From NCBI RefSeq assembly GCF_016798325.1, contig NZ_JAERVO010000003.1:455608-519607 (forward strand): a stretch of 64,000 nt of DNA, written 5' to 3'. How positions within the stretch are numbered: position 1 is the stretch's first letter; each line of letters begins with the position of its first letter. The translations under genes were made by a program, and so were the position numbers. Source of the stretch: Marinobacter mangrovi (GTDB taxonomy: Bacteria > Pseudomonadota > Gammaproteobacteria > Pseudomonadales > Oleiphilaceae). Below, in pieces: positions 1,998 to 43,333 of this stretch. The notes below the pieces were generated by a model. The model searched no databases, was not told where the DNA came from, and saw only the letters and a program-made list of their open reading frames with translations.

Positions 1998-4900
1998 ATG
2001 TCAGAAAACCAAACGAACCAAGCTTCAGCCAGCACTGGCCCAGCCTGTGAAGGCGAGAACCTGATCATTGAAGTCATTGGTAAGAACCATCCTGAGGGTC
2101 AGTCATTTCGTCTTTTCGACACCACGAATATGGTTCAGCAGGAGTGGTTAGAGAATCAGGTCAAAACGGAAGAGTTGGACGACAGTATTCTCCATGTCTG
2201 GCCTATGAAAGGCGAAGATGACAAAAACGTCTGGTTGGAAATGGCCGCGGATGAAGGCGATCCAATCCGGGTACCGTTCCTGAAGGAGGAGGGGGCTGTC
2301 GAACGACAGTCTGAGCGCCAGAAGCATGTCATTCTCCCGGTAGTGCCGGCGACGTTGATCCAGGGGGTAACCCTGAAGGAAAGTAACCCGGCCCATCACG
2401 TCATGCTGCGTGCAGGATTTCTTTACATATTTCATGAAGGAAAGCTCTGGAGAGAAATTGAAGTCCGAATCTCTGAAAAAGGTGTGACGACTTACCACGA
2501 TGTACCGGTATCGCAGTATCGAGCAGAAGGCGGGTTTGAGTATGGTTCCCGGAAAGCGACGGGCACCGGTCTGACTGAGATTTGGTTGCCTGCTCGCATA
2601 AATGGTGCTTGGCTGGATATACAGGTGGCCTACAGTGAGTTTCAACTGCCTTCCGCCCGTTTGAGGTACTTCGAAAAATCGGGCCGAAATCGCGAAGACC
2701 GGTTCAACTTCATTCATCTTGAGCTTGAAAGGCCAGATACCGAGGAAGGTGAAACGCGTCTGTTTGGCACCGGACCTGATCATGCTTTCCTCGCCGAGAA
2801 TCTCAAACCCCAGCGCCCTCGCAAACCGGCAGTAGAGTGGCAATGTGACCGTCCTGGTCGCTACCTGTGTGACGTTAATGGTGAATATCCCAAAGCAAGT
2901 TGGAATGACGCCAAAACGATTCATCAACGGCAAGAGTCCCAAGAGCTCGAGGACGAGATATACGAGGACGAGCGTCCGGAAATGGGCGCTTTATCGCTTT
3001 GCCTTGAAAGAACCTTGGAAGAACTGGAAAGCAGCAACGACAACGCAGAGGAAGCAAGGCAAGAGGATCAGAGCGATAACGCCGGGTCTTCGGAGCCCTC
3101 ACTCTGGGAATCAGGCGGTCAGTGTGTTCCTGACGCTTTGCAGGATGCACGGGATCGAGGCATTGGATGCATCTCGGTAGACGATGGCATTTATCGTCTA
3201 CGCTATCTTACCCAGCGAAAGTTGATAGCTGACTGGTTCAACAGTGCGGCGGTAAGAAGGGCCAAATGTCGGCCCTATTTCGATTCGGCATTTCTTGTCC
3301 ATTCCACCATCGTGCCTTCCGACTTCGATGGTAAGCCAAACCCTCTCCACAAGTTTATTTCAGAGCTATCTTCGACGGGCCGCAATGAAATTGATCGTTC
3401 GGTTGCGAACTCTGAACGGACGATGGCGCAACGGTATTTTGAGCATCTCCAGCGTGACTTACTGGTCGCCGTTAACAATATTGGAATACAAAGCGCGTTG
3501 ACCGATATGTTTACGTGCGATGGTTTCGACTACGCCGGAGCGTTTCAGTTCGTCAGCGGTATCATGAAGGATCTGGTAAAAGACTCTCGCGAAGCCGATG
3601 CACTGAACCTGCACAAAGGCGACACCTCAGAAAACGATGCAAAGCAATGGTTTCGAGGCTTTTGTCGGGGCGAGAACAGTGCTTCGCTCTTTAGCATTCT
3701 TTTCCCCAAGGCAACTCCCGAAACGCTCGAATCCCCTTACGTTGTGCCAGATGAGCCGGAAGAAAACGATGGCAGCGGTCTGTTTCGCGGGACCGAACTG
3801 GCGAAGCTGGAGAATGCGGACTTGCCCAAAGTTGAAGACGTCCAAACATTTCACGGTCTCGAACTCGTTGCGGCCGCACATGAGGGCGTTTTTACGTCGA
3901 TGCTGGCATTTTACGTGCGGGCCGGTAGTGGGATTCTGATGAATATCCACGGCGAGCTTTGGTCAGCCATTCATGACGCTGAGAAAAAGCTGACCGATGA
4001 CCCTGAGTTCAAGAAGAAGCGCCAGGAGTTGGTCGATCTCGACAAGCAGCTGAACGAAGTCAATGACGAGCGAGGGAACCTCAGAAAACAAAGAGCGGCC
4101 GCCCGGAATACCGTCGCAAGAGTGGATGAACTGTATGAAGAGCTTGGCGAAAAAAAAAGGAACTTGCAGCAAGCCAGGCAAGTAAAGGCAAGACAACTGA
4201 ATGAGATCAATAGCAAGGCTGTAACCGCAAAGATGCGTTTGTACGCGGCGTCTCTCCAACAAATTCGAGCTTCACTCCCCAATTTTTGGGGTGAAATGAC
4301 TTTTGAGCGTCTGTCCAAAGCTCTACAAAGTGATTACTACGTGATCGGCTGGCTGGATGATTTGGGCGATGAATCGAACACCAATCAAGGTGTTCGGGTT
4401 TTTGGTGACATCTTTGATGAAAGCACCGAAGAACGAACGTCCGTCGCATCGACAAATAGAAGACGGGCAAACGCCCAAGGCATTGACTCGGAAGCGCCAG
4501 AAGAAGCGCGGCTTCTGGTTTTACCGAAGAGCGCCAAGGCGGCAAAGGCTCTGCTCGAACTCAGCAGCAAGGAAAGTGCGGTCATCGCGGCAGAGAAGCA
4601 AGCAGAGGCGGCCAAGAAGGCTTTCGTTGAAGGGGGGCACGCTGGTACCAACGCTCGGCAGCGTCTTCAAACTGCAACTGAACAACTTGATGAGGCAAAT
4701 AAAAAGTTCAAGGAGCTTACATCACGCATGGGGTCGCTGCGGGAGGATGTAGATGCCCCTCAAAAGGTCATTGCCGAGACGAAGGGTGGGGTGGCATATC
4801 GCTCTTTGAACACGCCTGTTTTACCTGCGTTTGTGATGTTGGTAGAAGTTTATAATTTTTCTGCCAACTATAGCAGTTACGACGCCCTAGAAAGGAAGCG

Positions 4901-6062
4901 AGGCGTAATAAGAGCTTTCGGGGGGCTAGGAAGTGCTGCATACGATTTAACTCTTACCGCAAGTATACTCGCAGAGCGATTTCAGAATGCGATACCCAAA
5001 CAGCTTGGCCGAACGAGTCGATTAGTTACTGCGATGTCTGCGAAGCTGGATAAGGAGGTTAGCGGTCGAATAGGCTTATTACTAGCGAGGTTGGCAGGCG
5101 GACCGGTTGTGATGAGAGCGGCGCTTGGTGCAGCAGGTGCTTTGGCTACCGGTTTTATATTTCTGTCCGACGCCTTCCATGCTTTTGATATGGGGAACAC
5201 AGGGGTTGGCATTGGTTACAGTTTGCTTGCAGCAGGCAGTTTTGCGATGGCCATCAGTAGTGTTGGGGCCACTCTTCTGTTTATCGGCCCCTTAGGGTGG
5301 ATGGCGATCGGCATTGCTCTATCCATTGCTGGAGCACTTGGCGTTTGGTGGTTCAGCGAAGACCCCATAGAGACCTGGATGAGTCAGGGGCCGTTTGGCG
5401 ATTCAACGGAGCTGTCTTTTCTTAAAGACCCTGACGAGTCGTACTACCGGTTGATTAGCCTGTTAATGGGCGTGCGAATCTCTTGGGAGTCCAACCAGAA
5501 ACGAGCCGAGGTGCTTAAGGGCACCATTGAGAGCGAAGGCAAGCTGCTGGAAGCGCAACTTGAAGCCGATTCCTGCCTACGGATTGAGAGTCCCATTCCC
5601 GGTTTGTTCGAGGATTCAGAGAAGAAAAGATTGGATGCTTACTTGCGTCTTGTAGAAAAAGTTGATGCGCACGTTGAATCCAGCCCTTCTGAAAAAACTG
5701 GGAGAGGTCGGTTTGAGTTGCCGCCAGGACAACGCCTTATTGAGGGCGAAGAATTGAAAAAGTACGCCTTGTTCAGGGAGAAGATAGATAACGGATGGTT
5801 GGTTTATTTAAAGACTCCCAAGCCTCATAGAGTTGAAAAGAAAAGCTGGTTCGGAGGCACGCGAACAAACTTGTATACCTATGCGTGGAGCGTAAGGGCT
5901 CAGATTCATGTTCAGGACGATGGGCGTGATGTGGTGTTCCCGGCACCGCCACCGGACGATCCGTTGACATATGATAAGGCTGATCCGGAGCATACAACGC
6001 CAGATTTTTCAGAAACAGATAAAGACTTTTGGTTCGATGAACAGGTTAATCAAGATGGATGA
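1998..6062 (+). CDS. Large T6SS cargo effector (1354 aa), VasX-like: MIX-like motif, central coiled coil, C-terminal glycine-zipper transmembrane cluster, conserved about 70-aa tail
   Basis: Follows vgrG + DUF4123; 'LRAGFLYIF' fits the hRxGhhYhh MIX core (nt 2406-2432); Lys/Glu/Gln-rich coiled coil about 3960-4750; hydrophobic Gly/Ala-rich helices about 5064-5355; last 70 aa recur as remnants at 17569-17797 and 43334-43540. Confidence 0.6.
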   Translation: MSENQTNQASASTGPACEGENLIIEVIGKNHPEGQSFRLFDTTNMVQQEWLENQVKTEELDDSILHVWPMKGEDDKNVWLEMAADEGDPIRVPFLKEEGAVERQSERQKHVILPVVPATLIQGVTLKESNPAHHVMLRAGFLYIFHEGKLWREIEVRISEKGVTTYHDVPVSQYRAEGGFEYGSRKATGTGLTEIWLPARINGAWLDIQVAYSEFQLPSARLRYFEKSGRNREDRFNFIHLELERPDTEEGETRLFGTGPDHAFLAENLKPQRPRKPAVEWQCDRPGRYLCDVNGEYPKASWNDAKTIHQRQESQELEDEIYEDERPEMGALSLCLERTLEELESSNDNAEEARQEDQSDNAGSSEPSLWESGGQCVPDALQDARDRGIGCISVDDGIYRLRYLTQRKLIADWFNSAAVRRAKCRPYFDSAFLVHSTIVPSDFDGKPNPLHKFISELSSTGRNEIDRSVANSERTMAQRYFEHLQRDLLVAVNNIGIQSALTDMFTCDGFDYAGAFQFVSGIMKDLVKDSREADALNLHKGDTSENDAKQWFRGFCRGENSASLFSILFPKATPETLESPYVVPDEPEENDGSGLFRGTELAKLENADLPKVEDVQTFHGLELVAAAHEGVFTSMLAFYVRAGSGILMNIHGELWSAIHDAEKKLTDDPEFKKKRQELVDLDKQLNEVNDERGNLRKQRAAARNTVARVDELYEELGEKKRNLQQARQVKARQLNEINSKAVTAKMRLYAASLQQIRASLPNFWGEMTFERLSKALQSDYYVIGWLDDLGDESNTNQGVRVFGDIFDESTEERTSVASTNRRRANAQGIDSEAPEEARLLVLPKSAKAAKALLELSSKESAVIAAEKQAEAAKKAFVEGGHAGTNARQRLQTATEQLDEANKKFKELTSRMGSLREDVDAPQKVIAETKGGVAYRSLNTPVLPAFVMLVEVYNFSANYSSYDALERKRGVIRAFGGLGSAAYDLTLTASILAERFQNAIPKQLGRTSRLVTAMSAKLDKEVSGRIGLLLARLAGGPVVMRAALGAAGALATGFIFLSDAFHAFDMGNTGVGIGYSLLAAGSFAMAISSVGATLLFIGPLGWMAIGIALSIAGALGVWWFSEDPIETWMSQGPFGDSTELSFLKDPDESYYRLISLLMGVRISWESNQKRAEVLKGTIESEGKLLEAQLEADSCLRIESPIPGLFEDSEKKRLDAYLRLVEKVDAHVESSPSEKTGRGRFELPPGQRLIEGEELKKYALFREKIDNGWLVYLKTPKPHRVEKKSWFGGTRTNLYTYAWSVRAQIHVQDDGRDVVFPAPPPDDPLTYDKADPEHTTPDFSETDKDFWFDEQVNQDG

Positions 6063-7145: not shown

Positions 7146-7424
7146 TTAGCAGAACCCTGCTACGCCCTTTGGGACTTCGTACAAAACTACATGGATTTGA
7201 CCCAGCCCTTGCCCGATATCCCGATCTGGGAAGCCTACGGCCACCTGGACCCGGTCACAGCAGAGAACGACCGGCAAACCAATCGCCCGGAACGCTACTG
7301 GCGCGATATGGACGACGACACCTTCAAGGCCTGTGAGCGCGAGATGCACTATCGAGTCCACGCACTGCGCACCCTGAGCCGACCGAACATCATGGCCGAG
7401 AAGACGGTTTACGCGAGCTACTAG
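7146..7424 (+). pseudogene. 3' fragment (about 90 codons) of a displaced A1-type immunity gene
   Basis: From 'EPCYALWDFVQNYMD...' to '...KTVYASY*', near-identical to the C-termini of 17772..18848 and 43515..44588; no matching N-terminus; junction with upstream gene at 7111-7150. Confidence 0.6.
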
Positions 7425-7475
7425 CCGTTACACGGTTAATCGTTGAGTGGTTTCCCAGGGAAGGGAAACTGAAAT

Positions 7476-7511: not shown

Positions 7512-8435
7512 ATGCCCACCCCGCTGTACCAGCGCTGGCTGCCAATTCTGTTTGGCCTCGCCCTGCTATTCCCCGCTTCCGAACTCCACGCCGAAAAACC
7601 ACAACTCACCCTGGCCCAGGTCTACGAAAAGGGCGATGCCCTCAAAGGCTACTGGGTCAGCGAAAAACTCGACGGTGTGCGGGCCTACTGGGACGGTGAG
7701 CACCTGATTTCGCGTCAGGGCCATGCGTTTCATCCGCCGACCTGGTTTACCCGGGATTTTCCGGAGGTACCTCTGGATGGCGAGCTGTGGATGGGACGCG
7801 GGACCTTTTCCGAGCTGTCCGGGGTGGTGCGCAAGCTGGAGCCGGTGGACAGCGAGTGGCGGCAGGTGCATTACGAGATTTTTGATCTGCCCGGGAGTGA
7901 TCGCCCGTTTTCGGAGCGGGTGGCGCGCATGCGGTCGCTGCTCAAGCCTTCGCCATCACCCTACCTCGTTATGATCGAACAGACGCCGGCAACCACGCGG
8001 GCGGCGTTGATGGCGCGTCTGGACGAGGTGGTTGATGAGGGCGGTGAAGGGCTGATGCTACATCGTGGCGGTGCCCTGTATGAAGCCGGTCGCTCGGACG
8101 ATTTGCTGAAGGTGAAGCGGTATCAGGATGCCGAGGCCACGGTGGTGGGCTATTCGCCGGGGCAGGGGAAATACGAGGGCATGCTGGGCGCACTGGTGGT
8201 GGAGCGTTCCGATGGCCGCCGGTTCAAGCTGGGTAGCGGGTTCAGTGATGAGCAGCGTGCGGATCCTCCGGCGATCGGGGCGACGGTGACTTACAAATAT
8301 TATGGGCTGACGTCGACCGGATTACCGCGGTTCGCGAGTTTTATGCGGGTCCGGAATGAAGAGCCGGTCGGAAATGGGGGCAGACTCTGCGCGGCATTCT
8401 GTTCGACAAAGTCGCCACATGATGCTGCTCGATGA
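7512..8435 (+). CDS. Periplasmic ATP-dependent DNA ligase, LigE-like (copy 1, intact)
   Basis: N-terminal signal peptide 'LPILFGLALLFPASELHA'; motif I 'KLDGVRAYWDG' (KxDG adenylation lysine), 'EGLMLH', 'LLKVKR'; about 300 aa, typical of signal-peptide-bearing minimal ligases. Confidence 0.75.
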   Translation: MPTPLYQRWLPILFGLALLFPASELHAEKPQLTLAQVYEKGDALKGYWVSEKLDGVRAYWDGEHLISRQGHAFHPPTWFTRDFPEVPLDGELWMGRGTFSELSGVVRKLEPVDSEWRQVHYEIFDLPGSDRPFSERVARMRSLLKPSPSPYLVMIEQTPATTRAALMARLDEVVDEGGEGLMLHRGGALYEAGRSDDLLKVKRYQDAEATVVGYSPGQGKYEGMLGALVVERSDGRRFKLGSGFSDEQRADPPAIGATVTYKYYGLTSTGLPRFASFMRVRNEEPVGNGGRLCAAFCSTKSPHDAAR

Positions 8436-9588: not shown

Positions 9589-10608
9589 TTGACTGATCCT
9601 GAGAAGAGTGAACATAGCGGGGCTTCATACTCGGAAACGGCCTATCGCTCCGATGCCTTGCCGCGCCAGGCCCCGCTGAGTGATCCGGGTGGTTTTGCTC
9701 GCACCCTGGAAGGGCTGAATTTTGTCGAGCGGCTGCCTACTGGCAGTTACGCTGGTTTAGACGGGGACGTTAGCCCAGACGTTGTGAAGCATTTTCAGGA
9801 TCGGGCACAAGGTGAAATGAACTTGGCTGGCCCTCCCTGGGATCATAAAGGGAAGCCGGCCAATCTCATTAAGACGCGCTGGGAAATTATACTAATGTTT
9901 GCCGGTACTCTTGGAGATAGGTTCGTTTTCGGTTTTTTTTCGTTCGCTTGTTTAGGCAGTTTTCTTATAGGCATATGCGTTGCTGATTTTTTTATTACAT
10001 TGAAACTTATTTCAATATTGTTTTTTGGTTTGGTAATTCTTCATATTACTTTTCGTTATCCCTTCATGTGGCTCTTGGAGCGCTATCCAGAGATCATGGT
10101 TCGCGATCTCGGTTGCGGTTTTTTCCGTACGACGGGAAAAATCAAATTCCGCACCTACTGGGGTAAGGAAACCTTCGAGGCCCCCTTCATCGAGTTCGAT
10201 CCTTATATCGCCTATCACGTCCAACCGAATGGCCCGGTGAGCTATAAGCTGGTTCTTCGACACCGTTATCGGGGGCGTCAGACGGAGGTGGCTACCGTTC
10301 CGCAGGGACGAAAGACCGAGCTCTATGCCGTCTGGGACCAGTTGCAGCGCTACATGGACGTGAGCCAGCCCCTGCCGGATATCCCGGCCCTGGAAGCCTA
10401 CCGGTCCCTCGACCCCACAACCGCGGCCTATGATGCCGCCGGTAAGCGGGGTCGACCTGCGGATTATTGGGTCACACTGGACCTGGACTGGTGGAAACGG
10501 GAAGGGTATCCCGAGCACATGACAAAGATCGCTGAATTCCCGTGGGACAGTCTCGAAGACAAGATGGAACAGAGTGTGCCAAACCTGCGCGAAGCGGCCA
10601 TGGTTTAA
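9589..10608 (+). CDS. Immunity-family paralog A3 (divergent member; TTG start likely)
   Basis: 'YSETAYRSDALP' N-motif, TM segment, 'FIEFDPYIAYH', 'YAVWDQLQRYMDVSQPLPDIPALEAYRSLDPTT'; preceded by the about 170-nt junction also found at 42170-42340. Confidence 0.5.
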   Translation: MTDPEKSEHSGASYSETAYRSDALPRQAPLSDPGGFARTLEGLNFVERLPTGSYAGLDGDVSPDVVKHFQDRAQGEMNLAGPPWDHKGKPANLIKTRWEIILMFAGTLGDRFVFGFFSFACLGSFLIGICVADFFITLKLISILFFGLVILHITFRYPFMWLLERYPEIMVRDLGCGFFRTTGKIKFRTYWGKETFEAPFIEFDPYIAYHVQPNGPVSYKLVLRHRYRGRQTEVATVPQGRKTELYAVWDQLQRYMDVSQPLPDIPALEAYRSLDPTTAAYDAAGKRGRPADYWVTLDLDWWKREGYPEHMTKIAEFPWDSLEDKMEQSVPNLREAAMV

Positions 10609-11067: not shown

Positions 11068-11604
11068 GGCTTCGCCGCCCGGGCCTGCCGGCCCAGGACC
11101 AAGGGCAAGACCGAGCGCATGGTGAGCTACGTGAAGCACCACTTCTTCCAGCGCTATCGCAGCTTCGACAGCTACGCGCACCTGAACCAGTTACTGGAAC
11201 AGTGGTTGAGCAGCTATGCCCGTCAGCGGAGATTACGCCAGTTCCAGCAATCTGCGGCTCAGCGCTTCGAGGAAGAGCTCCACCAACTCAGCCCTCGTCC
11301 GGCAACGGACGTCGATACCCGCTATTACGACATCCGCCATGTGGGCTGGGATGCCTACATCGATGTGCGGGGCAAACGTTACAGCGTACCGGCCGAGTGT
11401 TGTGGTCAACGGGTCAACATCCTCATGAGCCTGGACGGTGAACTCACCGTCTACGACCTCCGGGGCCAGGAAGTCGCCCGTCACCGGATGACCGATCGCA
11501 GGCAAGGCTGGCAAACCGTCGCTGAACACCACGAGCCGCTGTGGCAAGAGGTGATGCCCGTGCAGCGCCGAAGCCTGGCGGTGTATGAGGAGGTGCTGCA
11601 ATGA
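11068..11604 (+). pseudogene. istA: IS21 transposase IstA, C-terminal fragment only
   Basis: In-frame region begins right after a stop at 11065-11067 with 'ASPPGPAGPGPRTKGKTERMVSY'; catalytic N-terminal region missing. Confidence 0.65.
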
Positions 11605-12402
11605 ACCTGGACCAACTCCTAGGCCGGCTCAAAATGGACCATCCGCAAGCCTCCCTGGATACCCTGTGCGAACACGCCAGCAAGAAGGACCTGAACTACC
11701 GGGAGTTCCTGGAACAGGCCCTGGCCCAGGAATGGGGTGGCCGCCACCAGAAAGGCCTGGACACGCGCCTCAAGCAGGCCCGGCTGCCCTGGATCAAAAC
11801 CCTGGAGCAGTTTGACTTCAGCTTCCAGCCGAGCATTGACCGCAAGCTGGTGCGGGAACTCTCCGGCCTGGGGTTCGTGGAGCGCAACGAGAGTGTGATC
11901 CTGCTGGGGCCACCGGGTGTGGGCAAAACCCACCTGGCCGTCGCCCTAGGCGTAAAGGCTGCTGAAGCGGGCCATCGCGTCCTGTTCATGACCCTGGATC
12001 GCCTGGTGAGCACACTGGTCAAAGCCCGGCAGGAAAACCGGCTGGACCGACAGCTTCAACAACTGATCTACCCAAAGGTGCTGGTGCTTGACGAGATCGG
12101 TTACCTGCCCATGACCCGGGAGGAGGTCAGCCTGTTCTTCCGTCTGATCAACCGGCGCTATGAGCGAGCCAGCACCATCCTGACCTCGAACAAGAGCTTT
12201 ATGGACTGGGGTGAGGTGTTGGGACCAGGTCATTGCCACCGCCATTCTGGATCGGCTGTTGCACCACTCAACGACTCTGAACATCAAGGGCGAGAGCTAC
12301 CGGCTAAAGGACAAACGGAAGGCCGGCCTTGTTCCCGGTACGAGCCAACAACAGGAGGTCTCTGACGACGCTGAGCCTCAAAAACCGGACACTGAAAACT
12401 GA
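11601..12402 (+). pseudogene. istB: IS21 helper ATPase IstB with a frameshift near codon 205
   Basis: ATG overlaps the istA stop (ATGA). The conserved C-terminus 'VIATAILDRLLHHSTTLNIKGESYRLK' continues in a different frame (ORF 12211..12402) after about nt 12215-12235. Confidence 0.65.
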
Positions 12403-16907: not shown

Positions 16908-17037
16908 GTTTGTTAGCAACAGAATGAGAAATATTTTGCGCGATAGACCGGCTATCTGCTCCTGATTTCGGTGCTTGAGTATCTAACCGTTGTAATCAAA
17001 TCTTCCGACATCCTCCCAAGGACGGGAATCCGACACA

Positions 17038-17072
17038 CAAGCAAACCCTTAATTCACCACAAGGACCGTGAA
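17038..17072 (+). repeat. Ligase leader repeat (copy 3)
   Basis: Same core sequence ending at ATG 17073. Confidence 0.75.
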
Positions 17073-17511
17073 ATGCCCACCCCGCTGTACCAGCGCTGGC
17101 TGCCAATTCTGTTTGGCCTTGCCCTGCTGTTCCCCGCGTCTGAACTCCACGCCGAAAAACCACAACTTACCCTGGCCCAGGTCTACGAAAAGGGCGATGC
17201 CCTCAAAGGCTACTGGGTCAGCAAAAAGCTCGACGGTGTGCGGGCCTACTGGGACGGTGAGCACCTGATTTCGCGTCAGGGCCATGCGTTTCATCCGCCG
17301 ACCTGGTTTACCCGGGATTTTCCGGAGGTACCTCTGGATGGCGAGCCGTGGATGGGACGCGGGACCTTTTCCGAGCTGTCTGGCGTAGTGCGCAAGCTGG
17401 ACCCGGTGGACAGCGCCGAGCACATGACAAAGATCGCTGAATTCCCGTGGGACAGTCTCGAAGACAAGATGGAGCAGAGTGTGCCAAACCTGCGCGAAGC
17501 GGCCATGGTTC
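17073..17511 (+). pseudogene. Mosaic fragment: LigE-like ligase codons 1-114 fused in frame to the last 32 codons of an A3-type immunity gene
   Basis: Ligase identity through 'VVRKLDPVDS', then 'AEHMTKIAEFPWDSLEDKMEQSVPNLREAAMV' (the C-terminus of 9589..10608). The track ORF 16971..17630 overextends on both sides. Confidence 0.6.
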
Positions 17512-17568
17512 AAACACTGACATCACCGCAGAAAGGTAGACCCCTTAGGTCTCAGGCAGACCCAGAGC

Positions 17569-17797
17569 TGAAAAGAAAAGCCGGTTCGGAGGCACGCGAA
17601 CAAACTTGTATACCTATGCGTGGAGCGTAAGGGCTCAGATTCATGTTCAGGACGAGGGGCGTGATGTGGTGTTCCCGGCACCGCCACCAGACGATCCGTT
17701 GACATATGATAAGGCGGATCCAGAGCATACAACGCCGGATTTTTCGGAAACGGGTAAAGATTTCTGGTTCGATGAAAAGGTGGTTCAACGTGGGTAG
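17569..17797 (+). pseudogene. Remnant of the last about 75 codons of an effector gene homologous to 1998..6062
   Basis: 'EKKSRFGGTRTNLYTYAWSVRAQIHVQDEGRDVVFPAPPPDDPLTYDKADPEHTTPDFSETGKDFWFDEKVVQRG*' against the effector C-terminus; no upstream effector body. Confidence 0.7.
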
Positions 17798-18848
17798 TGT
17801 TTTCGAGAAGCAGAACCAAGCCGCTGTTCATTACGCGGAAACAGCATACCGGCCAGAGTGCATACCAGAGCAACCTTCACAGCGGGAGGATTATAACCAA
17901 TCAGCTTTGGGGCGCGTCGGCACTGCACGTTTGCCATGGGGATACACCGAAACAGTTATCCCTTTGACCATTTTTTCTCAAGCTTCACCGGGTTTACTTC
18001 GTCGACATGAAAAACATGGAGATCCGTTAGAAGGGACTGGTTACCAGGGAAAAATGGATCATGAATGCTTTCGATATGCGCCTTTGGCCAAGCGATTTCA
18101 GATATTAAATTTAACTGAAATCATTTCCAGATTTATTATTATTATTTTTGGTCCTCTAATGATTTTGGGTTTTATTATAGGATCATTTCTTACATCCAAA
18201 AGTGATTACTGGCATAGTCTAATATACGATGACTGGCGCTCAAATGCTTTAATGTTTGGAGTTCCAATTGGAGTTTGGGTTAGTTCTTGGGTTTTAGGTA
18301 AGCTGTGTTTAGGCTGGTTTTTGAAGGCAGGAAAAGGCCCTCTATGGGAGCTGAAACGCCGCACCGGCATGGTCACCGTGTGGTCCTACCCTCCAAAATT
18401 TCCATTTATTCCCCGTGGCAAGCCTGAGGTTTTTAAAGCCCCCTTTGTGGAATTTGACGCCTGGGTCAGTACCCGTGGTGACCGGGCCGGGATTCTGAAC
18501 CGTCTCCATTTGTTCCATCGTTACAGCAAGTGTGAAGCAGGTGTGGGGGCTGTCGGTGGAGCGACCAGTATGCCTGAGCCCTGCTACGCCCTTTGGGACT
18601 TCGTCCAGAACTACATGGACGTGACCCAGCCCTTGCCCGATATCCCGATCTGGGAAGCCTGCCGCCACCTGGACCCGGTCACGGCCGAGCACGACCGGCA
18701 AACCAACCGCCCGGAACGCTATTGGCGCGATATGGACGACGACACGTTCAAGGCCTGCGAGCGCGAGATGCACTATCGAGTCCACGCACTGCGCACCCTG
18801 AGCCGGCCGAACATCATGGCTGAGAAGACGGTTTACGCGAGCTACTAG
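17772..18848 (+). CDS. A1-type candidate immunity protein (orphan copy), start overlapping the effector-tail remnant
   Basis: Same overlap geometry as 6037..7110; 'YAETAYRPECIP', two TM helices, 'FVEFDAWVSTRGDRAGILNRLHLFHRYS', 'YALWDFVQNYMDVTQPLPDIPIWEACRHLDPVTAEHDRQTNRPERYWRDMDDDTFKACE'. Confidence 0.55.
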   Translation: MKRWFNVGSVFEKQNQAAVHYAETAYRPECIPEQPSQREDYNQSALGRVGTARLPWGYTETVIPLTIFSQASPGLLRRHEKHGDPLEGTGYQGKMDHECFRYAPLAKRFQILNLTEIISRFIIIIFGPLMILGFIIGSFLTSKSDYWHSLIYDDWRSNALMFGVPIGVWVSSWVLGKLCLGWFLKAGKGPLWELKRRTGMVTVWSYPPKFPFIPRGKPEVFKAPFVEFDAWVSTRGDRAGILNRLHLFHRYSKCEAGVGAVGGATSMPEPCYALWDFVQNYMDVTQPLPDIPIWEACRHLDPVTAEHDRQTNRPERYWRDMDDDTFKACEREMHYRVHALRTLSRPNIMAEKTVYASY

Positions 18849-24572: not shown

Positions 24573-27500
24573 CTAGAAGGTGACTCCTTTGTCCAGCAGC
24601 CAGCGAACGACTCGCTCATTATTTTGAGACAAGGCGCGATCAAGGTAAGGCGATCGGGAAAATCCGGGCCATTCTTTATGGTTCTCGAGGTAATGGGTGA
24701 TGGCCCGGTTTTCACCCACATAGGCCGACTTGATCAAGTTCCTGTCCACCCATGTATAGTCCAACGAGGCGCCCGCATCCAGAAGTCGTTCTAAAACGCG
24801 GACTCCGGCATAAGTTGCCGCAGTCAGGATGGTATGGGCTTTCATGTGTGCACTGACGCCACTCGGGTCAGCACCGGCATTGAGTAGTACATCCACCATA
24901 TCCTCGTCGTTGTTTTTGACTGCCATGTACAGAGGACTTGAATGATCCTCATCATAAACATCTACCCAGGCGCCTTGTGCCAACAACGCACGTGCCATGG
25001 TGGCGTCGCCACTCATGACAGCCACCATCAGGGGAGTGCGGCCTTTGGCGTTTCTGGGATTAATATCGAGCAGATGTCCCTGGAGTGATTTGAAGCGGTC
25101 TGTATTGCCTGATGACACCGCAATAAACAATGCTCGGTTGCTGACCCGGGCATCATGGTCGAGCAGGAACCGCAGTGCTGGATCGTTATCGGATAGGATC
25201 GCAGCCTCCACCGCGCTCATTTGAGTGTTTTCATCGGTGGCATTGATCTTTTCAGGCGTGGTATCCGTTGGCAGGCTTCCCTCCAGGACCCCAGCAACGA
25301 CGGGGTTGACGATCTTGCCACTCTTCAGGAGCAGCTGCGCCAATGCTTTTCTGACGGCAAACGGCGTCGACGCTGCGTCGTTTTCGAGAGCGAGATCTGC
25401 CGGTGTCTTGCCATCGTTGTTGGTCGTATCCAGGTCTGTGCCTGCATCGAGCAGTAGTTGGATCAGCGTGCCATCCGTGTTGGCTTTGATGGCTCTGTGC
25501 AGGAGGGTGTCTCCCAAAAGCCCACGATCGTTGATGTCCAGGTCGTCGATCACCCCTGCCAGCCAGAGGGCCGGTGCGTCAGCTGCAATGCCCTCGATGT
25601 GCTCCTCCAGGTAGTCATCACGATCCCACCAGCCGATCGAGTCAATCAACCGATCGGCCAGGGCCGTGTCGCCATTGCGTAGGGCCACAGAAACGGGTTC
25701 CACGCCATTGAATAGATCATCGTCTACCTTGACCTCCACATCGGCCTCGAGCAGCGTGCGCATGGCTTTCAGGTTGTTGTACTGATCGGCGATGGATAGG
25801 AGTCCCTGATTCATATAGCCCTTGTTGAGGTCCAGGTTCTGCCCGATCAGGGTCTCTAAACGGGATTGGTCGTGGGTGGCGAGGGCAGCAACGAGCATAC
25901 CCATGACGGGGTCCTGATTCAGGTTTCTCTGGCTAACCGCCTGGCGATGCTCTGAAAGATAGGCTTTCACGCCGTCCAGCCTGTACAGCTCGCTTAGCAG
26001 GCCCGCCCGTATCGGGGGGTGTATGCCCCGCTGAATCAAAGCCAGTGCATTGTTGTCATTGGTGTGAAGCGCAATGTCGAGAGCGGTTTTTCCTGACGCA
26101 TCTTTTGCGTCTGTGTTTGCGCCCATGTCGATCACTTTGTCGAGCAGCTGCGGTGTTCCATAGGCTGCGGCGAGATGAATGATCTGCCGTCCCCGACTGT
26201 CCGCCTTTTTTATGATCGCAGGTACCACGAGTTTAGAGGCGATCTCGGCATCACCCGCACGAAGCGCAATATGAGCCGCCGTCTCGCCATTGTTGTTTGT
26301 CAGGGTCGGATCTGCACCGGCCTTGAGCAGCGCACCAACAACCGGGTCTTTCTGATGCTTGGCAGCGAGCATCAACGCGGTATTGCCAAGCTCATCGGTG
26401 GAATCCAGCGAAACAGGATCACCGATGAATGACTGAACTTGATTGAGGTCGCCTTGGGCGGCTGCCGCTCGAAATCGCATAGCGCCTGACTTGGTCTCAC
26501 TGTCCCTTTTAAGGGACGGTTGCGTTCCGTTGTTATCAGCCGATGTCCCCGATGCCGAGGCAAGAACATCGTGTATAAACTGGAAATCCTCTCTTTCCGA
26601 GATGAGTAGAGGTGAGCGGTCCGCCGAATGGCCGATTCTGGAGGGCGACGCTCCATGCTTTAACAGCAGCCGGACCGTGCGAATATCGGCATGTTCCACC
26701 GCAGTCGACAGGGGGCTCTCATAATCCCGGGGACCGCCTTCCGGGAGGGCTCCGTTCTCAAGTAGGATCCTGGCAACCTCGGAATCCCCCTTTTCGACAG
26801 CCTTGGCAAGCAGGCTGTAACCGCCCGGGGCCAGGGGGGCGCCGGCCTCGATCATTGTTTTCAGAAGATCTGGATTAGAATGAGTGATCGCTAGGGCGGG
26901 AGCCGAGCAGAGGGGGGTGTTCACGTTGGCTCCCAATTCAAGAAGATCCACAGCCAGAGACGTATTACCTGCAAAAAGGGCTGCACACAGTAGCGGATCT
27001 TTCTTTGCTCCGTAGGATTTCGCCAAGTCCAGCGTTGTCTGGTTCCAGGCTGGCATTTCCGCAGCGGCCTTCAGAACAGCGGCATGTCGTGATGCGATTT
27101 CCTTGCCGGGCCAAACCTGCTTGGCCAGTTCAACGTTGCCTTCCTGCGCGGCCTCTTCAAAGGGAGTGGTTCCGTATTCGCCGGTTTCGGAAACGGATAG
27201 ACCCTGCTGGATGGCCCACTCGCCAGCCTCTTGGTTGCCGGCATCCGCGGCGTACTTAAAAAATTTGGATAAGGGAACACCTTGGGCGTGAAGCCAATCC
27301 AATAACTTTAGGTGATGGCTGTTGACGGCCGCACGAGCAACCTCGGACGGATCGAAGTAGCCGCGCTGAATGGCTGCCCTGACGATGTCGGGCTGTCCTG
27401 CATCAAGCAGCCAGACGGCTTTATCGTAGGTTCTGAACTGCCATGACTGTTGCGGGTTGGCGCGAGCCAACAGAAGGGCATTTGCATCGTGTTGACCGTG

Positions 27501-28415
27501 GTGAAAGCCGTTGGCCAGGACTGTGCCATCTATTTCGGCGCCGGCATCCAGCAGGGCTTTTACAGTCTGAGCGTCGTTACCTCGAGCGGCCAGCCTTAGT
27601 GGTGTCCACCACTCCTGGCAGGAACGAGTCGCGGCTTCGTCTACGTTGAGCGAGAGCAGCTTTATGACGGCTTGGGTCTGTTTACCAATGAGCGCCCAGT
27701 GCAGCGCATTACAGTTCTTCGTCTGCAAATTGGTGCGCAACGCCTCATTCGTCAGCGGGGACAGGTTCCCCGTATAGGCGAGCCAGTTTGTCAAGCCGAG
27801 CACGGGCGGGGGCGTCCAGTTGCCTTGGGCCTTCCAGTACTCGACCAGTTTGATCTGGTGTAGCAGCTTGTCTTTGGCTGACAGAAATGCTGTGCCCTCA
27901 GTTCCATGATCAAGGGGGTTGGCGCCGAGTGTCAGCAGTAACTCGGTGGTGGCCGGTTCGGCATAATTGATTGCAATCTGCAAGACGCTGTGGGTAGCCG
28001 ATGGCGGCCTGGCATTGAGGTTCATTCCCTGTGCCTGGAACCACCGGATGGCATCGGTCCTGTTCGAGGCGACGGCATGGAAAAGAGGCGACCAGCCTGT
28101 TCCATCGAACTCGTTCAGGGCGACCCCTTCTTCGGATAACAACTCAAGGACGTCAATGTGACCTGAGTCGACGGCTGCGGAGACCAGCCGACTGGCATCG
28201 GCGCCGACTTTGGGTAGAGGCAGTCCCTCATGAACCAAAGCCTTCAGGCCCTCGACGTCACCATTGCGTGCGAGCGTGAATAAGGCCGTTTCCGCCGAGG
28301 CGGGCGCACCCTGCAGAAGCAGGGATAGCAGCAGAGCCTGTCGTAACAGGGCGTTGCTCTTGGCGGCGAGTTTCTGTCCGATCGAAGAAAAAGAGGGGCA
28401 GTTACTTGGTCCCAT
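24573..28415 (-). CDS. Giant ankyrin-repeat protein (1280 aa) with N-terminal signal peptide
   Basis: Signal peptide 'LLLSLLLQGAPASA'; more than 25 ANK-type repeats throughout ('GNTALMLAAKHQKDPVVGALLKAGADP', 'GRTPLMVAVMSGDATMARALLAQGAWVDVYDEDHSSPLYMAV'). Confidence 0.8.
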   Translation of the reverse strand: MGPSNCPSFSSIGQKLAAKSNALLRQALLLSLLLQGAPASAETALFTLARNGDVEGLKALVHEGLPLPKVGADASRLVSAAVDSGHIDVLELLSEEGVALNEFDGTGWSPLFHAVASNRTDAIRWFQAQGMNLNARPPSATHSVLQIAINYAEPATTELLLTLGANPLDHGTEGTAFLSAKDKLLHQIKLVEYWKAQGNWTPPPVLGLTNWLAYTGNLSPLTNEALRTNLQTKNCNALHWALIGKQTQAVIKLLSLNVDEAATRSCQEWWTPLRLAARGNDAQTVKALLDAGAEIDGTVLANGFHHGQHDANALLLARANPQQSWQFRTYDKAVWLLDAGQPDIVRAAIQRGYFDPSEVARAAVNSHHLKLLDWLHAQGVPLSKFFKYAADAGNQEAGEWAIQQGLSVSETGEYGTTPFEEAAQEGNVELAKQVWPGKEIASRHAAVLKAAAEMPAWNQTTLDLAKSYGAKKDPLLCAALFAGNTSLAVDLLELGANVNTPLCSAPALAITHSNPDLLKTMIEAGAPLAPGGYSLLAKAVEKGDSEVARILLENGALPEGGPRDYESPLSTAVEHADIRTVRLLLKHGASPSRIGHSADRSPLLISEREDFQFIHDVLASASGTSADNNGTQPSLKRDSETKSGAMRFRAAAAQGDLNQVQSFIGDPVSLDSTDELGNTALMLAAKHQKDPVVGALLKAGADPTLTNNNGETAAHIALRAGDAEIASKLVVPAIIKKADSRGRQIIHLAAAYGTPQLLDKVIDMGANTDAKDASGKTALDIALHTNDNNALALIQRGIHPPIRAGLLSELYRLDGVKAYLSEHRQAVSQRNLNQDPVMGMLVAALATHDQSRLETLIGQNLDLNKGYMNQGLLSIADQYNNLKAMRTLLEADVEVKVDDDLFNGVEPVSVALRNGDTALADRLIDSIGWWDRDDYLEEHIEGIAADAPALWLAGVIDDLDINDRGLLGDTLLHRAIKANTDGTLIQLLLDAGTDLDTTNNDGKTPADLALENDAASTPFAVRKALAQLLLKSGKIVNPVVAGVLEGSLPTDTTPEKINATDENTQMSAVEAAILSDNDPALRFLLDHDARVSNRALFIAVSSGNTDRFKSLQGHLLDINPRNAKGRTPLMVAVMSGDATMARALLAQGAWVDVYDEDHSSPLYMAVKNNDEDMVDVLLNAGADPSGVSAHMKAHTILTAATYAGVRVLERLLDAGASLDYTWVDRNLIKSAYVGENRAITHYLENHKEWPGFSRSPYLDRALSQNNERVVRWLLDKGVTF

Positions 28416-31027: not shown

Positions 31028-32968
31028 GTGGATATGGACTTGTCTTGGATCATGCCGGTGCTGGTATCTGCCGGGATACTGGTGGTCGTGCTACTGGCGA
31101 TTTTGACGCTGTTCAAGGCGTTCTATCGAAAGGTGGATCAGGGAGAGGCGCTAATCGTCAACGACCTGTCCGCCACACCGAAGGTGTACTTTACCGGCGC
31201 GATGGTGCTGCCAGTCATCCACCGCTCGGAAACCATGAAAATTTCCGTGATTACGTTGGAGCTGAACCGGACCGGCAATGAAGGCCTGATTTGTAAGGAC
31301 AACCTGCGAGCGGACATCACCGTTGCCTTCTACCTGCGGGTGAATGAGACAGCGGAAGATGTCCTCCGGGTTGCCAAATCGGTGGGAGTGGGGCGCGCCT
31401 CGGACCGTACGGCAGTCAATGAGCTGTTCAACGCGAAGTTCAGCGAAGCATTAAAAACCGTCGGTAAGAAGATGGAATTCATGCAGCTCTTTGAGGAGCG
31501 GCAGCGGTTTCGGGATGCCATCGTCGAGACCATTGGCGAGGATCTTAACGGCTATATCCTGGAAGACGTGGCCATCGACTACCTGGAGCAAACGCCGAAG
31601 AGCGCGCTGGATCCGAACAATATCCTGGATTCCGAAGGCATTCGCCGGATCACCGAAATTACGGCGATGCATAATGTGGAAACCAATCGCTTGGAGCGGG
31701 ATCAGCAGCTTGAGATCCAGCGGAAGAATGTATCGGCCCGGGAAGCGTCGCTGGAACTGGAGCGTACCCAGGCGGATGCCGAGGCTCGCCAGCAGCGCGA
31801 GATTGAAACCCTGAAAGCCCGTGAGGCTTCCGAGACGGAGCAGGTGCGTCAACAGGAGCGTGCTAAAGCTGAGGCCGCACGGATCAAAACCGACGAAGAA
31901 GTCGAGATTGCCGAAGAGAACAAGCGTCGCCAGACCGAAATGGCCGTCAAGGCGCGTGAGCGTGCGGTGCAGATTGAAGAGGTCCGTATCCAGCAGGCGC
32001 GTGAACTGGAGGACGTGAACCGCGAACGCGCGGTGGAAATCGAGCGCATCGGTATGGAGAAATCGCTGGAGGAAGAGCGTAAGGAGATTGCGGTCATTAC
32101 CAGCGAACGCATTGCGGTTGAGCGCGGTGTGGCTGAGGAAGAAGAGAACATCAAGGATGTTCGTAACCGTTCCGAGGCTGAGCGCCTGAAAGTGCAGAGC
32201 GTGATTGCGGCGGAAGCGGATGCCGAAGAGAACAAGCTCAAAGAGGTCAAAGCTGCAGAAGCCGCCTATGAGCGGGCTAAGCTGGAAGCTGACGAAGTCG
32301 TGATACGCGCTCAGTCGGATCTGGATTCGGCGGAGAAGAAAGCCGCTGCGGACGAGAAGTCGGCCCGTGGTCGGCAGGCACTGGCAGCCGCCGACGGTCT
32401 TGCCCAGGCTCAGGTCATGGAGGCCCGTGCGACAGCTCAGCGGGCTGAAGGCTTGGCCCAGGCGGAAGTCAAAACCGCGACCGCCAAGGCTGACGAAGAG
32501 GCTGGCATGGCCGAGGTCCGCGTACTGGATCATCGCCTGGATACTGAAGCCCAAGGCGAAGAGAAGATGGGGCTGGCCAAGGCCCAGGCGCGCGAAGCCA
32601 TGGCCCGCGCCGAGGCCAATGGTCTGGTTGAGAAGCTCAAGGCCTACGACAACATGTCCGAAGAGGCTCGCCACTTCGAGCAGTTCCGCATGAACCTCGA
32701 GGTCCACGAAAAAGAAACCATGGCCACGATCGAAGCGCAGCGCATCGGCATGCTGGAGAATGGCAAGGTGATGTCGGCGGCCCTGAAGGACGCCAAGTTC
32801 GAGATGATCGGTGGCGATGGCGACATCTTCGAGAAATTCGCCAAGGGCCTGGGCTATGGCAAGACCGTACAAGGGGTTCTGGACAAGTCACCGGCACTAC
32901 AGGCCGCTCTGGCGGGAATTTCCGACCGTGCCCTGAACGGCAAGTCGAATTCCACCGAAAACGCCTGA
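31028..32968 (+). CDS. Flotillin-like SPFH/band-7 protein (YqiK-like)
   Basis: N-terminal TM, SPFH domain ('DNLRADITVAFYLRV'), long Glu/Ala/Arg-rich coiled-coil tail. Confidence 0.8.
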   Translation: MDMDLSWIMPVLVSAGILVVVLLAILTLFKAFYRKVDQGEALIVNDLSATPKVYFTGAMVLPVIHRSETMKISVITLELNRTGNEGLICKDNLRADITVAFYLRVNETAEDVLRVAKSVGVGRASDRTAVNELFNAKFSEALKTVGKKMEFMQLFEERQRFRDAIVETIGEDLNGYILEDVAIDYLEQTPKSALDPNNILDSEGIRRITEITAMHNVETNRLERDQQLEIQRKNVSAREASLELERTQADAEARQQREIETLKAREASETEQVRQQERAKAEAARIKTDEEVEIAEENKRRQTEMAVKARERAVQIEEVRIQQARELEDVNRERAVEIERIGMEKSLEEERKEIAVITSERIAVERGVAEEEENIKDVRNRSEAERLKVQSVIAAEADAEENKLKEVKAAEAAYERAKLEADEVVIRAQSDLDSAEKKAAADEKSARGRQALAAADGLAQAQVMEARATAQRAEGLAQAEVKTATAKADEEAGMAEVRVLDHRLDTEAQGEEKMGLAKAQAREAMARAEANGLVEKLKAYDNMSEEARHFEQFRMNLEVHEKETMATIEAQRIGMLENGKVMSAALKDAKFEMIGGDGDIFEKFAKGLGYGKTVQGVLDKSPALQAALAGISDRALNGKSNSTENA

Positions 32969-33054: not shown

Positions 33055-36000
33055 ATGTCGACGGACCGCAGCGAGCTTGAATCCATAGTCAGGGAAGGAA
33101 CCGCCTTTGAAACCATTCAGAAGCGACTGAAAGAACAGGGCCGCCAGCTCCGCTCATCGGTCGAATCCTTGAACACCACACGGTCGGAGCTTTTTGGCAG
33201 CGCCGGTATGCAGGTGCTAGGGCGTGGGCGTATCCGGACAGAGAACAACTCGGTGGCGCGGGATGTTGTGCGCATCGGGGATCGTCTGCTGTTCGGGTTC
33301 AATGTTCAGCTTGGGCTTCGCAAAGCCCTCGCGATTGGGGACGTCTTCCGCCTCTATGGTCTGAAGGACTCCGAGGACGGTTTCGAGGTGACCGAAGCGC
33401 CCATTGAGGGCAGCTTCCTGGAAGACCGTCGCTTCCAGACGGATTTCCGGGAACTACAGCAGTATTACAGCTACGCCACGCTGTCCCAGTTGGCGATCAT
33501 GAGCGGCATGCTGCTGATGTCCTTCCGTATTGGAGAGAAACTGAGCGATCGTCGGGTCTTTCGTTGGGAATTGGCGGCGAATGGGGAAGTCAGCCGCTAT
33601 GTGGACAATCGCGGCGAGCGTGATCTGGTGTTTCCCGGCCGGTTCAGCTTCCCGTGGGTGACCGCGGGGCGCGACAATCAGGTCCAGGGCCGGGCCCCGC
33701 ACCTCAACATCGCGGATACCCTTTTCATCGATAACCTGCGCGGCGACATTACCTTCAAGGTTGAAAACAACACCAAAACCGGCGAAGGCATCTTCTCTGA
33801 TCCGGTCGACTCTGACTCCCAGTCACTCGACGATGCGACTTTCGAGTATGCGGACCTCGGGGAGGTCATTCTGGTTCGCATCCTGCCATTCGGCGAAGAT
33901 CATTGGCGCTACTATCTGTTCAACCGCGTCACGAAACTGGTGGAGCGTAACGATGCCATGGGAGGATCCGTCGTGACCCTGCCGGAGAACCATGGCCTTA
34001 TTTTCCCGACCGGCTATTACCTGTCCAGCGGCGAGCTAAAGACGTTTGCCGTCCCCGATGTGGATCTCCGTTTCGAACGTGCGATCCGTTCGCCGAACGG
34101 CGAAGACGTTCTCTACGTGTTCTACGGGGAAGATGCGGGCGAGGTGGTGCTCTATCGCTACAACCTCATCCGAAAGGAAGCTGATGCGCCGATGATCGGG
34201 CATGGTTTTGCCCTGTTCGAAAATGGCCATCTCGCCATTTTCAACGCGGACAGCGAACCAACCCTCGTTCATCCGCTTCAGCTCTGGACGACGCCGTTCA
34301 TGTCCGAGAGCTATCACGCCCAGGACGCCGTGGGTAATGACACCCTCATGGGTCGTATTGGGAACCCGGAACTGGTCAGAGGCATCGCCGAGATTAATTC
34401 CATCGTCACTCTGGTGGAAAAGTCGACGGCTTCCGAACAGCACTACACCACACTGATCCGGACGTCCGACCGGGTACTCAATCAGTTCTACTGGATCGGA
34501 GAGCTTGGTGACGAGGTGCAGGGCAATGACCTTGCCGGTCAGTTGGCCCAGGTACGAAAGACCGCCGAGCTGATGCTGGACGAGTACGAAAAAGTCCAGA
34601 GCATTCGCAGCCAGACCGCTATGGCCGTCAGCGAAGCGGGTGAAGTCCAGGGAAAGCTGTTGCGGAGCCTCAAGCCTGACAGCTGGAAAACCCCCGACCA
34701 GTTCGTGGCGCACCTCAAGCAGGTGCGTGATCATCGCGGGGTCGTACGGACCTTGCGGGATCGTCGTTACATCGACGAATCGGCCATCGAGGCACTGGAG
34801 CAGGAACTGGACCAGGCCGAGCAGCGACTGACGGACCGTACGTTTAACTTCCTGGCGACGCCGGCGGCGCTGGATGGGTACCGCAAGACCCTGGCGGATC
34901 TCGCCCAGTCCGTGAACGACGCCTCGTCAAGGGACGAACTGGCCAAGTGCGTCGAACAGTACCGCGAACTTACCGCCGGGTTGGATATGATCCAGGGCAT
35001 GCTGGCTTCCCTGTCCGGCGACAATGCGAGCCTGGAAACCCAGATTACCGAGAACATCTCGGGCATCTACGCCCGGATCAACCAGCAGCGGTCCGAGGCC
35101 GAGATTCGCCTTAAGGAGCAAGGCAGCCAGGAGGCCAAGGCGCAGTTTGCGGCCCGTATGCGGCTGTTTGAGCAGAGTCTGTCCAACGGTGTCGGGGCGC
35201 TGACAGAACCGGACGCCTGCGATGGCCTGATGACCCGGATGCTGGATCAGCTTCAGGAACTGGAAAGCCAGTTCGGTGAGTATGATGAGTTCCTGGCCGC
35301 CATCCTGGAACAGCGGGAGGCTGCCCACGAGAGCATCGAGGCGCGCCGCCAGCAGTTGCAGGACCAGCGCCAACGTCGCATTAACACGCTGAACGATGCG
35401 GCGGATCGCATACTTCGCAACATCGCGCGCCGCACTGAGCGTTTCGAAAGTCAGGAAGAACTGCACGCCTTCTTTGCCTCCGACGCCATGGTGGCCAAGG
35501 TCCGCAGCATGGCCCAGGAGCTGCGCGATATGGGCGCCAGCATGGAGGCCGATGACTGCGAGGGGCGGTTGGCGTCGGAACGGGATTCGGCGTTACGCAG
35601 CGTTCGTGATCGTGCCGACATCTACGAGGATGGCGGGCAGGTCATACGCCTGGGGCCGCGTCACCGGTTTTCCGTCAATCGCCAGGAGGTGGACCTGACG
35701 CTGGTCCCCCGGGACGATCGGGTCTTGCTCCATATGACCGGTACGCAGTATTACGAGCCCATCGAGGACGCCGAGTTGGAATCCCTGAAGTCATACTGGG
35801 ACATGAGCCAGCCGTCGGAGTCGGAAGCCGTATACCGGGCGGAGTACCTGGCCTTTCTGGTGATGGGCGCCTTGCAGGAAGAGACCGAGGAATCCGTCAA
35901 CGTCGCCAACCGCGACGAACTTGCCGACTATATCCGGCGGTTCGCGTCGCCGAGGTACCGAGAAGGCTATGAGAAAGGCATCCACGATCACGACGCGGCA

Positions 36001-43309: not shown

Positions 43310-43333
43310 GAGCAAAAGGGCCTGTTCGGAAAC

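Follow-up and report, generated by a model that had tools for sequence, protein, structure and literature searches.

Why does the end of a toxin gene stand in front of an intact immunity gene when the rest of the toxin gene is missing, and why does this occur twice in one stretch of DNA? The stretch is a 64,000-nucleotide (nt) part of the genome of Marinobacter mangrovi (GCF_016798325.1, NZ_JAERVO010000003.1, 455,608–519,607, forward strand), which was analysed at its full length and is called the window here; the product of 1998..6062 in it (1354 amino acids, aa) is 100% identical to protein P0001 of that species. The window opens with a type VI secretion system (T6SS) cluster, in which 1998..6062 is the resident effector gene and is followed by its immunity gene. 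At 17.6 and 43.3 kb, the ends of two further effector genes remain as stubs, each leading into an immunity gene. We consider it likely that these two features are orphan immunity cassettes left by effector displacement, in which the immunity gene has stayed intact and the toxin gene has been lost except for its last 76–77 codons. This reading is built on the anatomy of the two features, their homologies, a cognate full-length pair in another genome and purifying selection, all of which are observed.

The reference tail was set as the last 77 codons of the resident effector gene (5829–6062). The window was searched by tblastn with the resident effector as the query, and additionally for stubs with 45 + 36 family tails (81 queries). 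For the comparisons we used 45 effector homologues (including P0001, P0003, P0034, P0042 and P0044) and an immunity-family scan of one genome per species, which gave 312 relatives; 78 loci were kept and carry L numbers below. P0003, the effector of locus L001, is a full-length protein of 1367 aa from a metagenome and is 55% identical overall to the resident effector. The features that carry the argument are the following.

9..1409, + strand, vgrG, 3′ part (cut by the window start); Pfam Phage_GPD, Phage_base_V and Gp5_trimer_C
1422..1985, + strand, DUF4123 (Tap-type) adaptor; PF13503, E value 1.4e-12
1998..6062, + strand, resident VasX/BTH_I2691-like effector, 1354 aa; NF041559 54.9 bits, PF20249 21.6 bits
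6037..7110, + strand, cognate immunity gene A1a, 357 aa; ATG 26 nt inside the effector 3′ end
17564..17797, + strand, orphan-1 effector stub, last 77 codons, P0001-type tail; tblastn, in-frame stops upstream
17772..18848, + strand, orphan immunity gene A1b, intact, 358 aa; M. halodurans orthologue
42284..43309, + strand, orphan immunity gene of type B, intact; 55–63% aa identity to genes in six Marinobacter loci
43308..43540, + strand, orphan-2 effector stub, last 76 codons, P0003-type tail; 76/76 aa identical to P0003
43515..44588, + strand, orphan immunity gene A1b′, intact, 357 aa; matches the L001 immunity gene after P0003

The tblastn search with the resident effector gave exactly two further matches in the window. 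Residues 1278–1354 match 17564–17794 with 91% aa identity (E value 1e-38), and residues 1280–1354 match 43310–43537 with 53% (E value 1e-17). An earlier sequence-only reading had placed these remnants at 17569–17797 and 43334–43540, with lengths of 68–75 codons and identities described as nearly identical and about 60%, respectively. Its ends were right, the starts are corrected to 17564 (77 codons) and 43308–43310 (76 codons), 43334 being merely the first GTG of the orphan-2 stub open reading frame (ORF), and the measured identities take the place of the estimates. At the nt level the orphan-1 tail is 92–94% identical to the resident tail (94% over ~210 nt), and the orphan-2 tail 55–58%. The 45 + 36 family tails revealed no third A-type stub site in the window, and these tails together with three B-type effectors found no stub before the type B and type C immunity genes.

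The geometry of the overlap is the same at all three sites, as had been proposed: the immunity genes start with ATGs at 6037, 17772 and 43515, in each case 26 nt ahead of the tail stops at 6062, 17797 and 43540. The absence of an effector body upstream of the stubs is also borne out, and the DNA there is positively identified. On the 5′ side of 17564 comes first a filler of 33 nt, then 115 nt from the 3′ end of a type C immunity gene, and beyond these 402 nt of the 5′ part of a ligase gene; on the 5′ side of 43308, the intact immunity gene 42284..43309 reaches its stop codon. This TAG stop abuts the orphan-2 stub in the same frame (43307–43312), and read-through would give an immunity–tail fusion; the shared frame is probably a coincidence.

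The immunity genes behind the stubs are close to genes that stand behind effectors in other genomes. A search for a full-length effector with the variant tail of 43.3 kb, which the sequence-only reading had suggested, returned P0003, whose last 76 residues are identical to the orphan-2 stub. The order in L001 is vgrG, DUF4123 adaptor, effector, immunity gene and ligase; its positions 4987–7214 match 43308–45535 of the window at 90% nt identity, and the homology begins abruptly at 43308. The orphan-2 tail differs from that of L001 at 2 of 228 nt, and A1b′ is 90% identical in aa and 88.7% in nt to the immunity gene after P0003, with a ratio of nonsynonymous to synonymous substitution rates (dN/dS) of 0.15. 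For A1b, the orthologue in M. halodurans (L003) shows 98% aa identity, 95.4–95.5% nt identity and a dN/dS of 0.05, and is situated behind a P0003-type effector gene that is cut by the contig start. Both orphan immunity genes are thus under purifying selection. A1b is only 56% identical in aa to A1a and 81% in nt to A1b′, so that each of the two orphans is nearer to its orthologue in another genome (95.5 and 88.7% nt) than to the other. The orphan status of both genes therefore stands: each is intact (358 and 357 aa), has no adjoining full-length cognate effector, and has a close relative in a pair elsewhere, although the effector ORF of the L003 pair runs off the contig. The pool of allelic effectors that had been postulated is confirmed by the 45 homologues. 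A metagenome scan with an exact 21-mer of the P0003-type tail gave two chance matches in unrelated genes.

Both cassettes lie 3′ of the vgrG–adaptor–effector cluster on the same strand, and this relation is weaker for orphan 2. Orphan 1 is located 11.5 kb downstream of the effector gene, with only immunity genes, scars and an insertion sequence (IS) between. Orphan 2 is located 37 kb downstream, at the edge of a low-GC (guanine plus cytosine) island beside the conserved ligase flank. Scars were identified by comparing the window with itself at the nt level, and this comparison gave, in total, two copies and two 5′ fragments of the ligase gene and two 3′ fragments of immunity genes. The remaining features of the cluster are as follows.

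7150..7425, + strand, A1b-type immunity 3′ fragment, 274 nt, directly after A1a; 94–96% nt identity to 18576–18849 and 44316–44590
7512..8435, + strand, ATP-dependent DNA ligase copy 1, nearly complete; Pfam DNA_ligase_OB_2, NCBIfam PRK09125
8487..9485, + strand, type B immunity gene, disrupted, internal stop at 8886–8888; 75% aa and 81% nt identity to 42284..43309
9589..10608, + strand, type C immunity gene, same superfamily by alignment; homologues in L015 and L025
10646..10953, + strand, ligase 5′ fragment (scar); 93% nt identity to 7453–7760, tblastn
11119..12365, + strand, IS21-family remnant, C-terminal part of istA plus istB; PF22483, PF01695
12457..13011, + strand, D-type VasX_N effector 3′ remnant, 184 codons; 52–53% aa identity to the D-type effector ends of L012 and L018
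12986..16907, + strand, four D-type immunity paralogues with ATGs at 12986, 14002, 15019 and 16032; sequence comparison
17014..17415, + strand, ligase 5′ fragment (scar), 402 nt; 95% nt identity to 7453–7854
17416..17530, + strand, type C immunity 3′ end plus 17 nt (scar), 115 nt; 98% nt identity to 10511–10625
44676..45542, + strand, DNA ligase copy 2, conserved right flank of the cluster; L001 alignment to 45535

The region of ligase copy 1 is 96% identical in nt to 44316–45539, and its 3′ end is altered after 8373. The two ligase copies are near-identical (96% nt) and have a hydrophobic N-terminal leader resembling a signal peptide. A ligase gene is the conserved right-hand flank of the cluster in six other Marinobacter loci (L001, L002, L008, L009, L015 and L016). 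The GC content of the 2–44 kb interval is 47–60%, versus 62–66% in the flanks on both sides. One product of the scars is a chimeric ORF of 219 aa (16971–17630), in which the ligase N-terminus is joined in frame with the C-terminal end of the type C immunity protein and runs on into the stub region; it is likely to be wrongly annotated as a gene.

The D-type array shows the same organization with another effector type. The last three D-type paralogues are each preceded by a D-type tail stub of 34–40 codons, and the D-type immunity ATG also lies 26 nt inside the stub ORF (GTCGATGAA, versus TTCGATGAA in the A family). D-type effector genes are found in L012, where the gene is full-length (955 aa; PF20249 61 bits), and in L018, where it is cut by the locus start. 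The IS21 remnant lies immediately 5′ of the 184-codon D-type stub and probably truncated the D-type effector; its istB product departs from the IstB profile over the last ~45 residues.

Stubs are not confined to M. mangrovi. Of the 78 kept loci, at least 13 others have a stub of 33–359 codons directly 5′ of an immunity homologue. They come from Marinobacter, Pseudomonas, Stutzerimonas and Halopseudomonas, and a full-length effector–immunity pair precedes the stub in many of these loci. In L012, a D-type effector–immunity pair lies ahead of a 186-codon A-type stub and its immunity gene, which directly exemplifies the displacement of one effector type by another. This locus supports the successive displacement that the sequence-only reading had proposed, as do the scars layered between the orphans and the resident pair, namely 5′ fragments of the ligase gene, 3′ fragments of immunity genes and the IS21 remnant. 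Homologues of the type B orphan 42284..43309 are situated behind a B-type effector in L007, L008 and L029. This effector has 1266–1275 aa, an N-terminal part of 680 aa that is 23–25% identical to the resident effector and a different C-terminus, and the type B immunity gene follows it in all three loci. In L007 and L029, an A1-like immunity gene lies directly behind another immunity gene without a stub. In M. halodurans (L003–L006), at least seven tandem units of ~1.5 kb, each consisting of a 146-codon tail and an immunity gene, correspond to L001 4780–6268 and share one junction; therefore, unit amplification also occurs. This array is split over small contigs, with at least two P0003-type effector genes, each cut by a contig start, and the repeats evidently collapsed or broke the assembly.

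From these observations we infer the order of events, the recombination mechanism, and the expression and protective function of the cassettes. The island would be a T6SS auxiliary cluster whose variable 3′ region grew to ~42 kb as new effector–immunity modules were added repeatedly on the vgrG side. The distal ends of such modules would bring along pieces of the donor flank, namely ligase 5′ fragments and immunity 3′ ends, joined non-homologously by homology-facilitated illegitimate recombination or an equivalent process. The stub would survive for two reasons: the toxin 3′ end overlaps the immunity gene by 26 nt, and the joins that removed the body happened to fall upstream of the immunity ATG. 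Cassette 2 (43308–44588) would be the remainder of a P0003-type pair as in L001, next to the in-situ ligase 44676..45542, and is probably the oldest layer. Cassette 1 (17564–18848) would be a later layer and a recombinant, combining a P0001-type tail with an immunity gene that is paired with a P0003-type toxin in M. halodurans. Most likely, the immunity genes that were kept give protection from neighbours in which the old toxins are still in use.

Several observations weigh against displacement as the source of both cassettes. The starts of the two stubs agree within one codon (R1278 of the resident effector and the equivalent E in the P0003 type) while their upstream partners differ, and given the spread of 33–359 codons the chance of such agreement for two independent joins is ~1%. 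A common ancestor of 76-codon tail plus immunity gene with later tail replacement, a fragile or preferred site, and chance are possible causes. A shared motif at the two left junctions was considered and dropped, with weak resemblances alone (e.g. AGCTGAAA.G.AAGC near the ligase upstream region), which are not relied on. The membership of cassette 2 in the same cluster is the weaker part of the reading: unrelated genes (the ankyrin protein, PspA and the DUF3686 ATPase) separate this cassette from the effector, and the assignment depends on GC content and on the comparison with L001. The immunity family, whose protective role is putative, has no sequence match in Pfam, NCBIfam or the PDB. Finally, no sigma-70-like promoter was found in or ahead of the stubs, and promoter and terminator scans around both cassettes gave nothing above the shuffled expectation in or before them.

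The near-equal starts would be expected if the cassettes were unit copies, that is, if tail and immunity gene had been duplicated in tandem in situ by unequal crossing-over and had then diverged, with no foreign module displacing the resident one. The M. halodurans array, with its single junction, shows such units, and the D2–D4 stubs in the window are near-equal in length as well. However, 25 kb lie between the two cassettes, whose upstream junctions differ, and the tails fall into two classes with 58% nt identity. Each immunity gene is nearer to a gene of another genome than to the other copy, and simple duplication would not account for the ligase and immunity fragments in between, which need imports or rearrangements. 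We therefore regard duplication in situ as unlikely. Still less credible is that a frameshift or an assembly error has split effector genes of which the stubs form the ends. Nothing speaks for it apart from the capacity of short repeats to confuse assemblies, as in M. halodurans, and because the DNA ahead of each stub could be positively assigned to other genes, with no effector-like frame there, no effector body is left for a frameshift correction to restore. The stubs are thus not the 3′ ends of frameshifted intact genes, the outcome that had been named as a refutation, and this explanation can practically be set aside.

A question of a different kind is whether the stub was kept for a need in cis, as a promoter, a ribosome-loading site, an upstream ORF for translational coupling or a homologous handle for cassette exchange. 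The 26-nt overlap is the same at the three A sites and in the D family, no obvious Shine–Dalgarno sequence precedes the immunity ATGs, and the conserved tail stands as an island with a hypervariable region on either side. Between orphan 2 and L001, synonymous divergence (dS) is 0.04 in the tail and 0.40 in the immunity gene, a difference of ~10-fold, the tails within the P0003 class are far more alike than the immunity genes behind them, and in orphan 1 the sequence changes partner just 5′ of the immunity ATG. In contrast, the stub length ranges from 33 to 359 codons among genomes, the A1-like immunity genes of L007 and L029 do without a stub, no promoter consensus is found in the stubs and their left edges are non-homologous joins. 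A need in cis is accordingly possible but rather doubtful, and displacement, with the stub as a by-product of the overlap, remains the preferred reading.

The conserved tail had also been proposed as the recombination handle of the allelic effectors, and this proposal is supported in part. Sliding comparisons along effector and immunity genes revealed a layout of conserved effector body, hypervariable stretch (~aa 950–1100 of the resident effector, overlapping the hydrophobic helices), conserved tail, hypervariable immunity 5′ half and conserved immunity 3′ half. Over its final 207 nt, the tail is 95–100% identical within the P0003 class, versus 78–88% for the adjoining immunity genes. Orphan 1 is a mosaic: the tail shares 94% nt identity with that of the resident effector (P0001 type), the immunity gene 95.5% with a gene that stands behind a P0003-type tail in M. 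halodurans, and the switch lies between ~17740 and ~17765. These patterns of identity fit recombination or gene conversion bounded by the tail, and a handle acting within one class is plausible. The P0003-type and P0001-type tails are 58% identical in nt, and classes at 55–58% are too diverged to pair and recombine with each other. Because of this divergence, and because the left edges of both stubs are non-homologous (illegitimate) joins, the handle is not what gave rise to these two stubs. A bolder form of the idea, which we put forward only as speculation, is that the conserved 3′ tail is a built-in homologous handle that makes immunity genes exchangeable cassettes without a recombinase, with the 76/77-codon starts as a preferred break or crossover point. 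If true, immunity genes could be picked up, piled into stacks such as the M. halodurans array and reshuffled without their toxins. Were the resident tail and the orphan-1 tail to recombine, the cognate immunity gene would be lost.

The closest known case is the T6SS of V. cholerae, in which orphan immunity arrays are explained by a model of sequential displacement (Kirchberger et al. 2017, PMC5361080). In this model, new modules are proposed to join on the vgrG side by homology-facilitated illegitimate recombination, and the 3′ end of an effector gene is occasionally carried along with the orphan (PMC5361080). M. mangrovi likewise has effector-less immunity genes 3′ of vgrG–adaptor–effector, close to immunity genes of complete pairs in other strains. 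The differences are the genus and the effector and immunity families, the preserved donor-flank scars (ligase fragments) and the distance of one orphan, which lies 37 kb off at the far edge of a 42-kb island. Moreover, no A- or D-type orphan in the window is without a stub, a consequence of the immunity ATG being placed within the effector end.

Orphan toxin/immunity modules were reportedly described for Rhs and CdiA-CT systems by Poole (2011) and Koskiniemi (2014). Such orphans keep the variable toxin domain together with the immunity gene and can be re-activated. The likeness to them, which the sequence-only reading had drawn, is partial. As in Rhs and CdiA-CT, displaced 3′ modules form a string behind the main gene and keep a stretch homologous to it that could recombine; this homology is retained in orphan 1 (94% nt over ~210 nt) and not in orphan 2 (55% nt). 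Koskiniemi 2014 and Jackson 2009 are cited within PMC5361080. However, the M. mangrovi stubs are the last 76–77 codons, downstream of the variable region (aa ~950–1100), which is absent, and 1998..6062 has no Rhs/YD-repeat, FHA or CdiA core domain of Pfam. Since what is kept comes after the variable toxin region, the cassettes are immunity-only, and recombination with the resident tail could swap only the immunity gene. Re-arming of the effector in the manner of Rhs orphans is thereby ruled out.

Acquired interbacterial defence islands of Bacteroidales, which hold orphan immunity genes, are said to be mobile, associated with integrases and detached from the T6SS effector locus (Ross et al. 2019). 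Here too, effector-less immunity genes accumulate, presumably for defence against non-kin, whereas the M. mangrovi orphans lie in the 3′ region of the effector cluster itself and carry effector stubs.

The resident effector is related to the BTH_I2691/VasX toxins, and activity as a membrane toxin is predicted for its clade. Toxins of the BTH_I2691 family are pore formers that are recruited and loaded by DUF4123 adaptors and neutralised by inner-membrane immunity proteins binding their transmembrane region, and pore-forming or membrane-depolarising activity is established for Tke5 and VasX (PMC13133200). As in the Tke5–Tki5 and VasX–TsiV2 pairs (PMC13133200), the effector gene follows vgrG and a DUF4123 adaptor, a gene for a membrane protein of ~35–40 kDa lies directly downstream, the N-terminal region resembles MIX/VasX_N and the C-terminal hydrophobic helices match the profile. 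The scores are nevertheless far under the cut-offs. For NCBIfam NF041559 the resident effector reaches 54.9 bits (E value 5.8e-15, profile positions 544–841) versus a cut-off of 150 bits, and seven of its relatives reach 38–70 bits; for PF20249 (MIX/VasX_N) it reaches 21.6 versus 27 bits, and this family is present in the precomputed Pfam column for the relatives P0034, P0042 and P0044. A PDB sequence search with the resident effector gave no match. Further differences are that ~200 aa of additional, conserved C-terminal tail extend past the end of the profile and that the immunity family has no Pfam, NCBIfam or PDB relatives. By position and context, this downstream family is putatively the immunity family; A1a is 80% identical in aa to the gene behind the M. 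bohaiensis effector, and two hydrophobic helices are visible in the alignment of the family.

The 2–44 kb interval also holds genes outside the T6SS, namely those for a 1280-aa ankyrin-repeat protein (24573..28415), PspA, DUF2170 and glutathionylspermidine synthase, and for a 1745-aa DUF3686/AAA ATPase (33055..38292) preceded by a 646-aa ORF without a Pfam match. A second T6SS cluster near orphan 2 was ruled out on this basis: 33055..38292 is the ATPase gene, and 31028..32968 has no VgrG domains. The stretch 38641–41868, just 5′ of the type B orphan, encodes small proteins of 237, 234 and 112 aa, all three predicted to be membrane proteins and without a family match. The 112-aa protein has a zinc-ribbon-like N-terminus, and the three genes might likewise be orphan immunity genes.

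In summary, the phenomenon is known in kind from the sequential displacement in V. cholerae, and the present instance is new in its effector and immunity families, in its genus and in how cleanly the scars are recorded. Current understanding is not overturned and the interest is modest. The finding extends the sequential-displacement picture to Marinobacter and to a widespread unannotated immunity family, with its 312 relatives in one-genome-per-species data, and from the preserved scars the construction of such an island can be read unusually well. With its variable toxin region and variable immunity 5′ half, the layout points to the predicted seat of toxin–immunity specificity.

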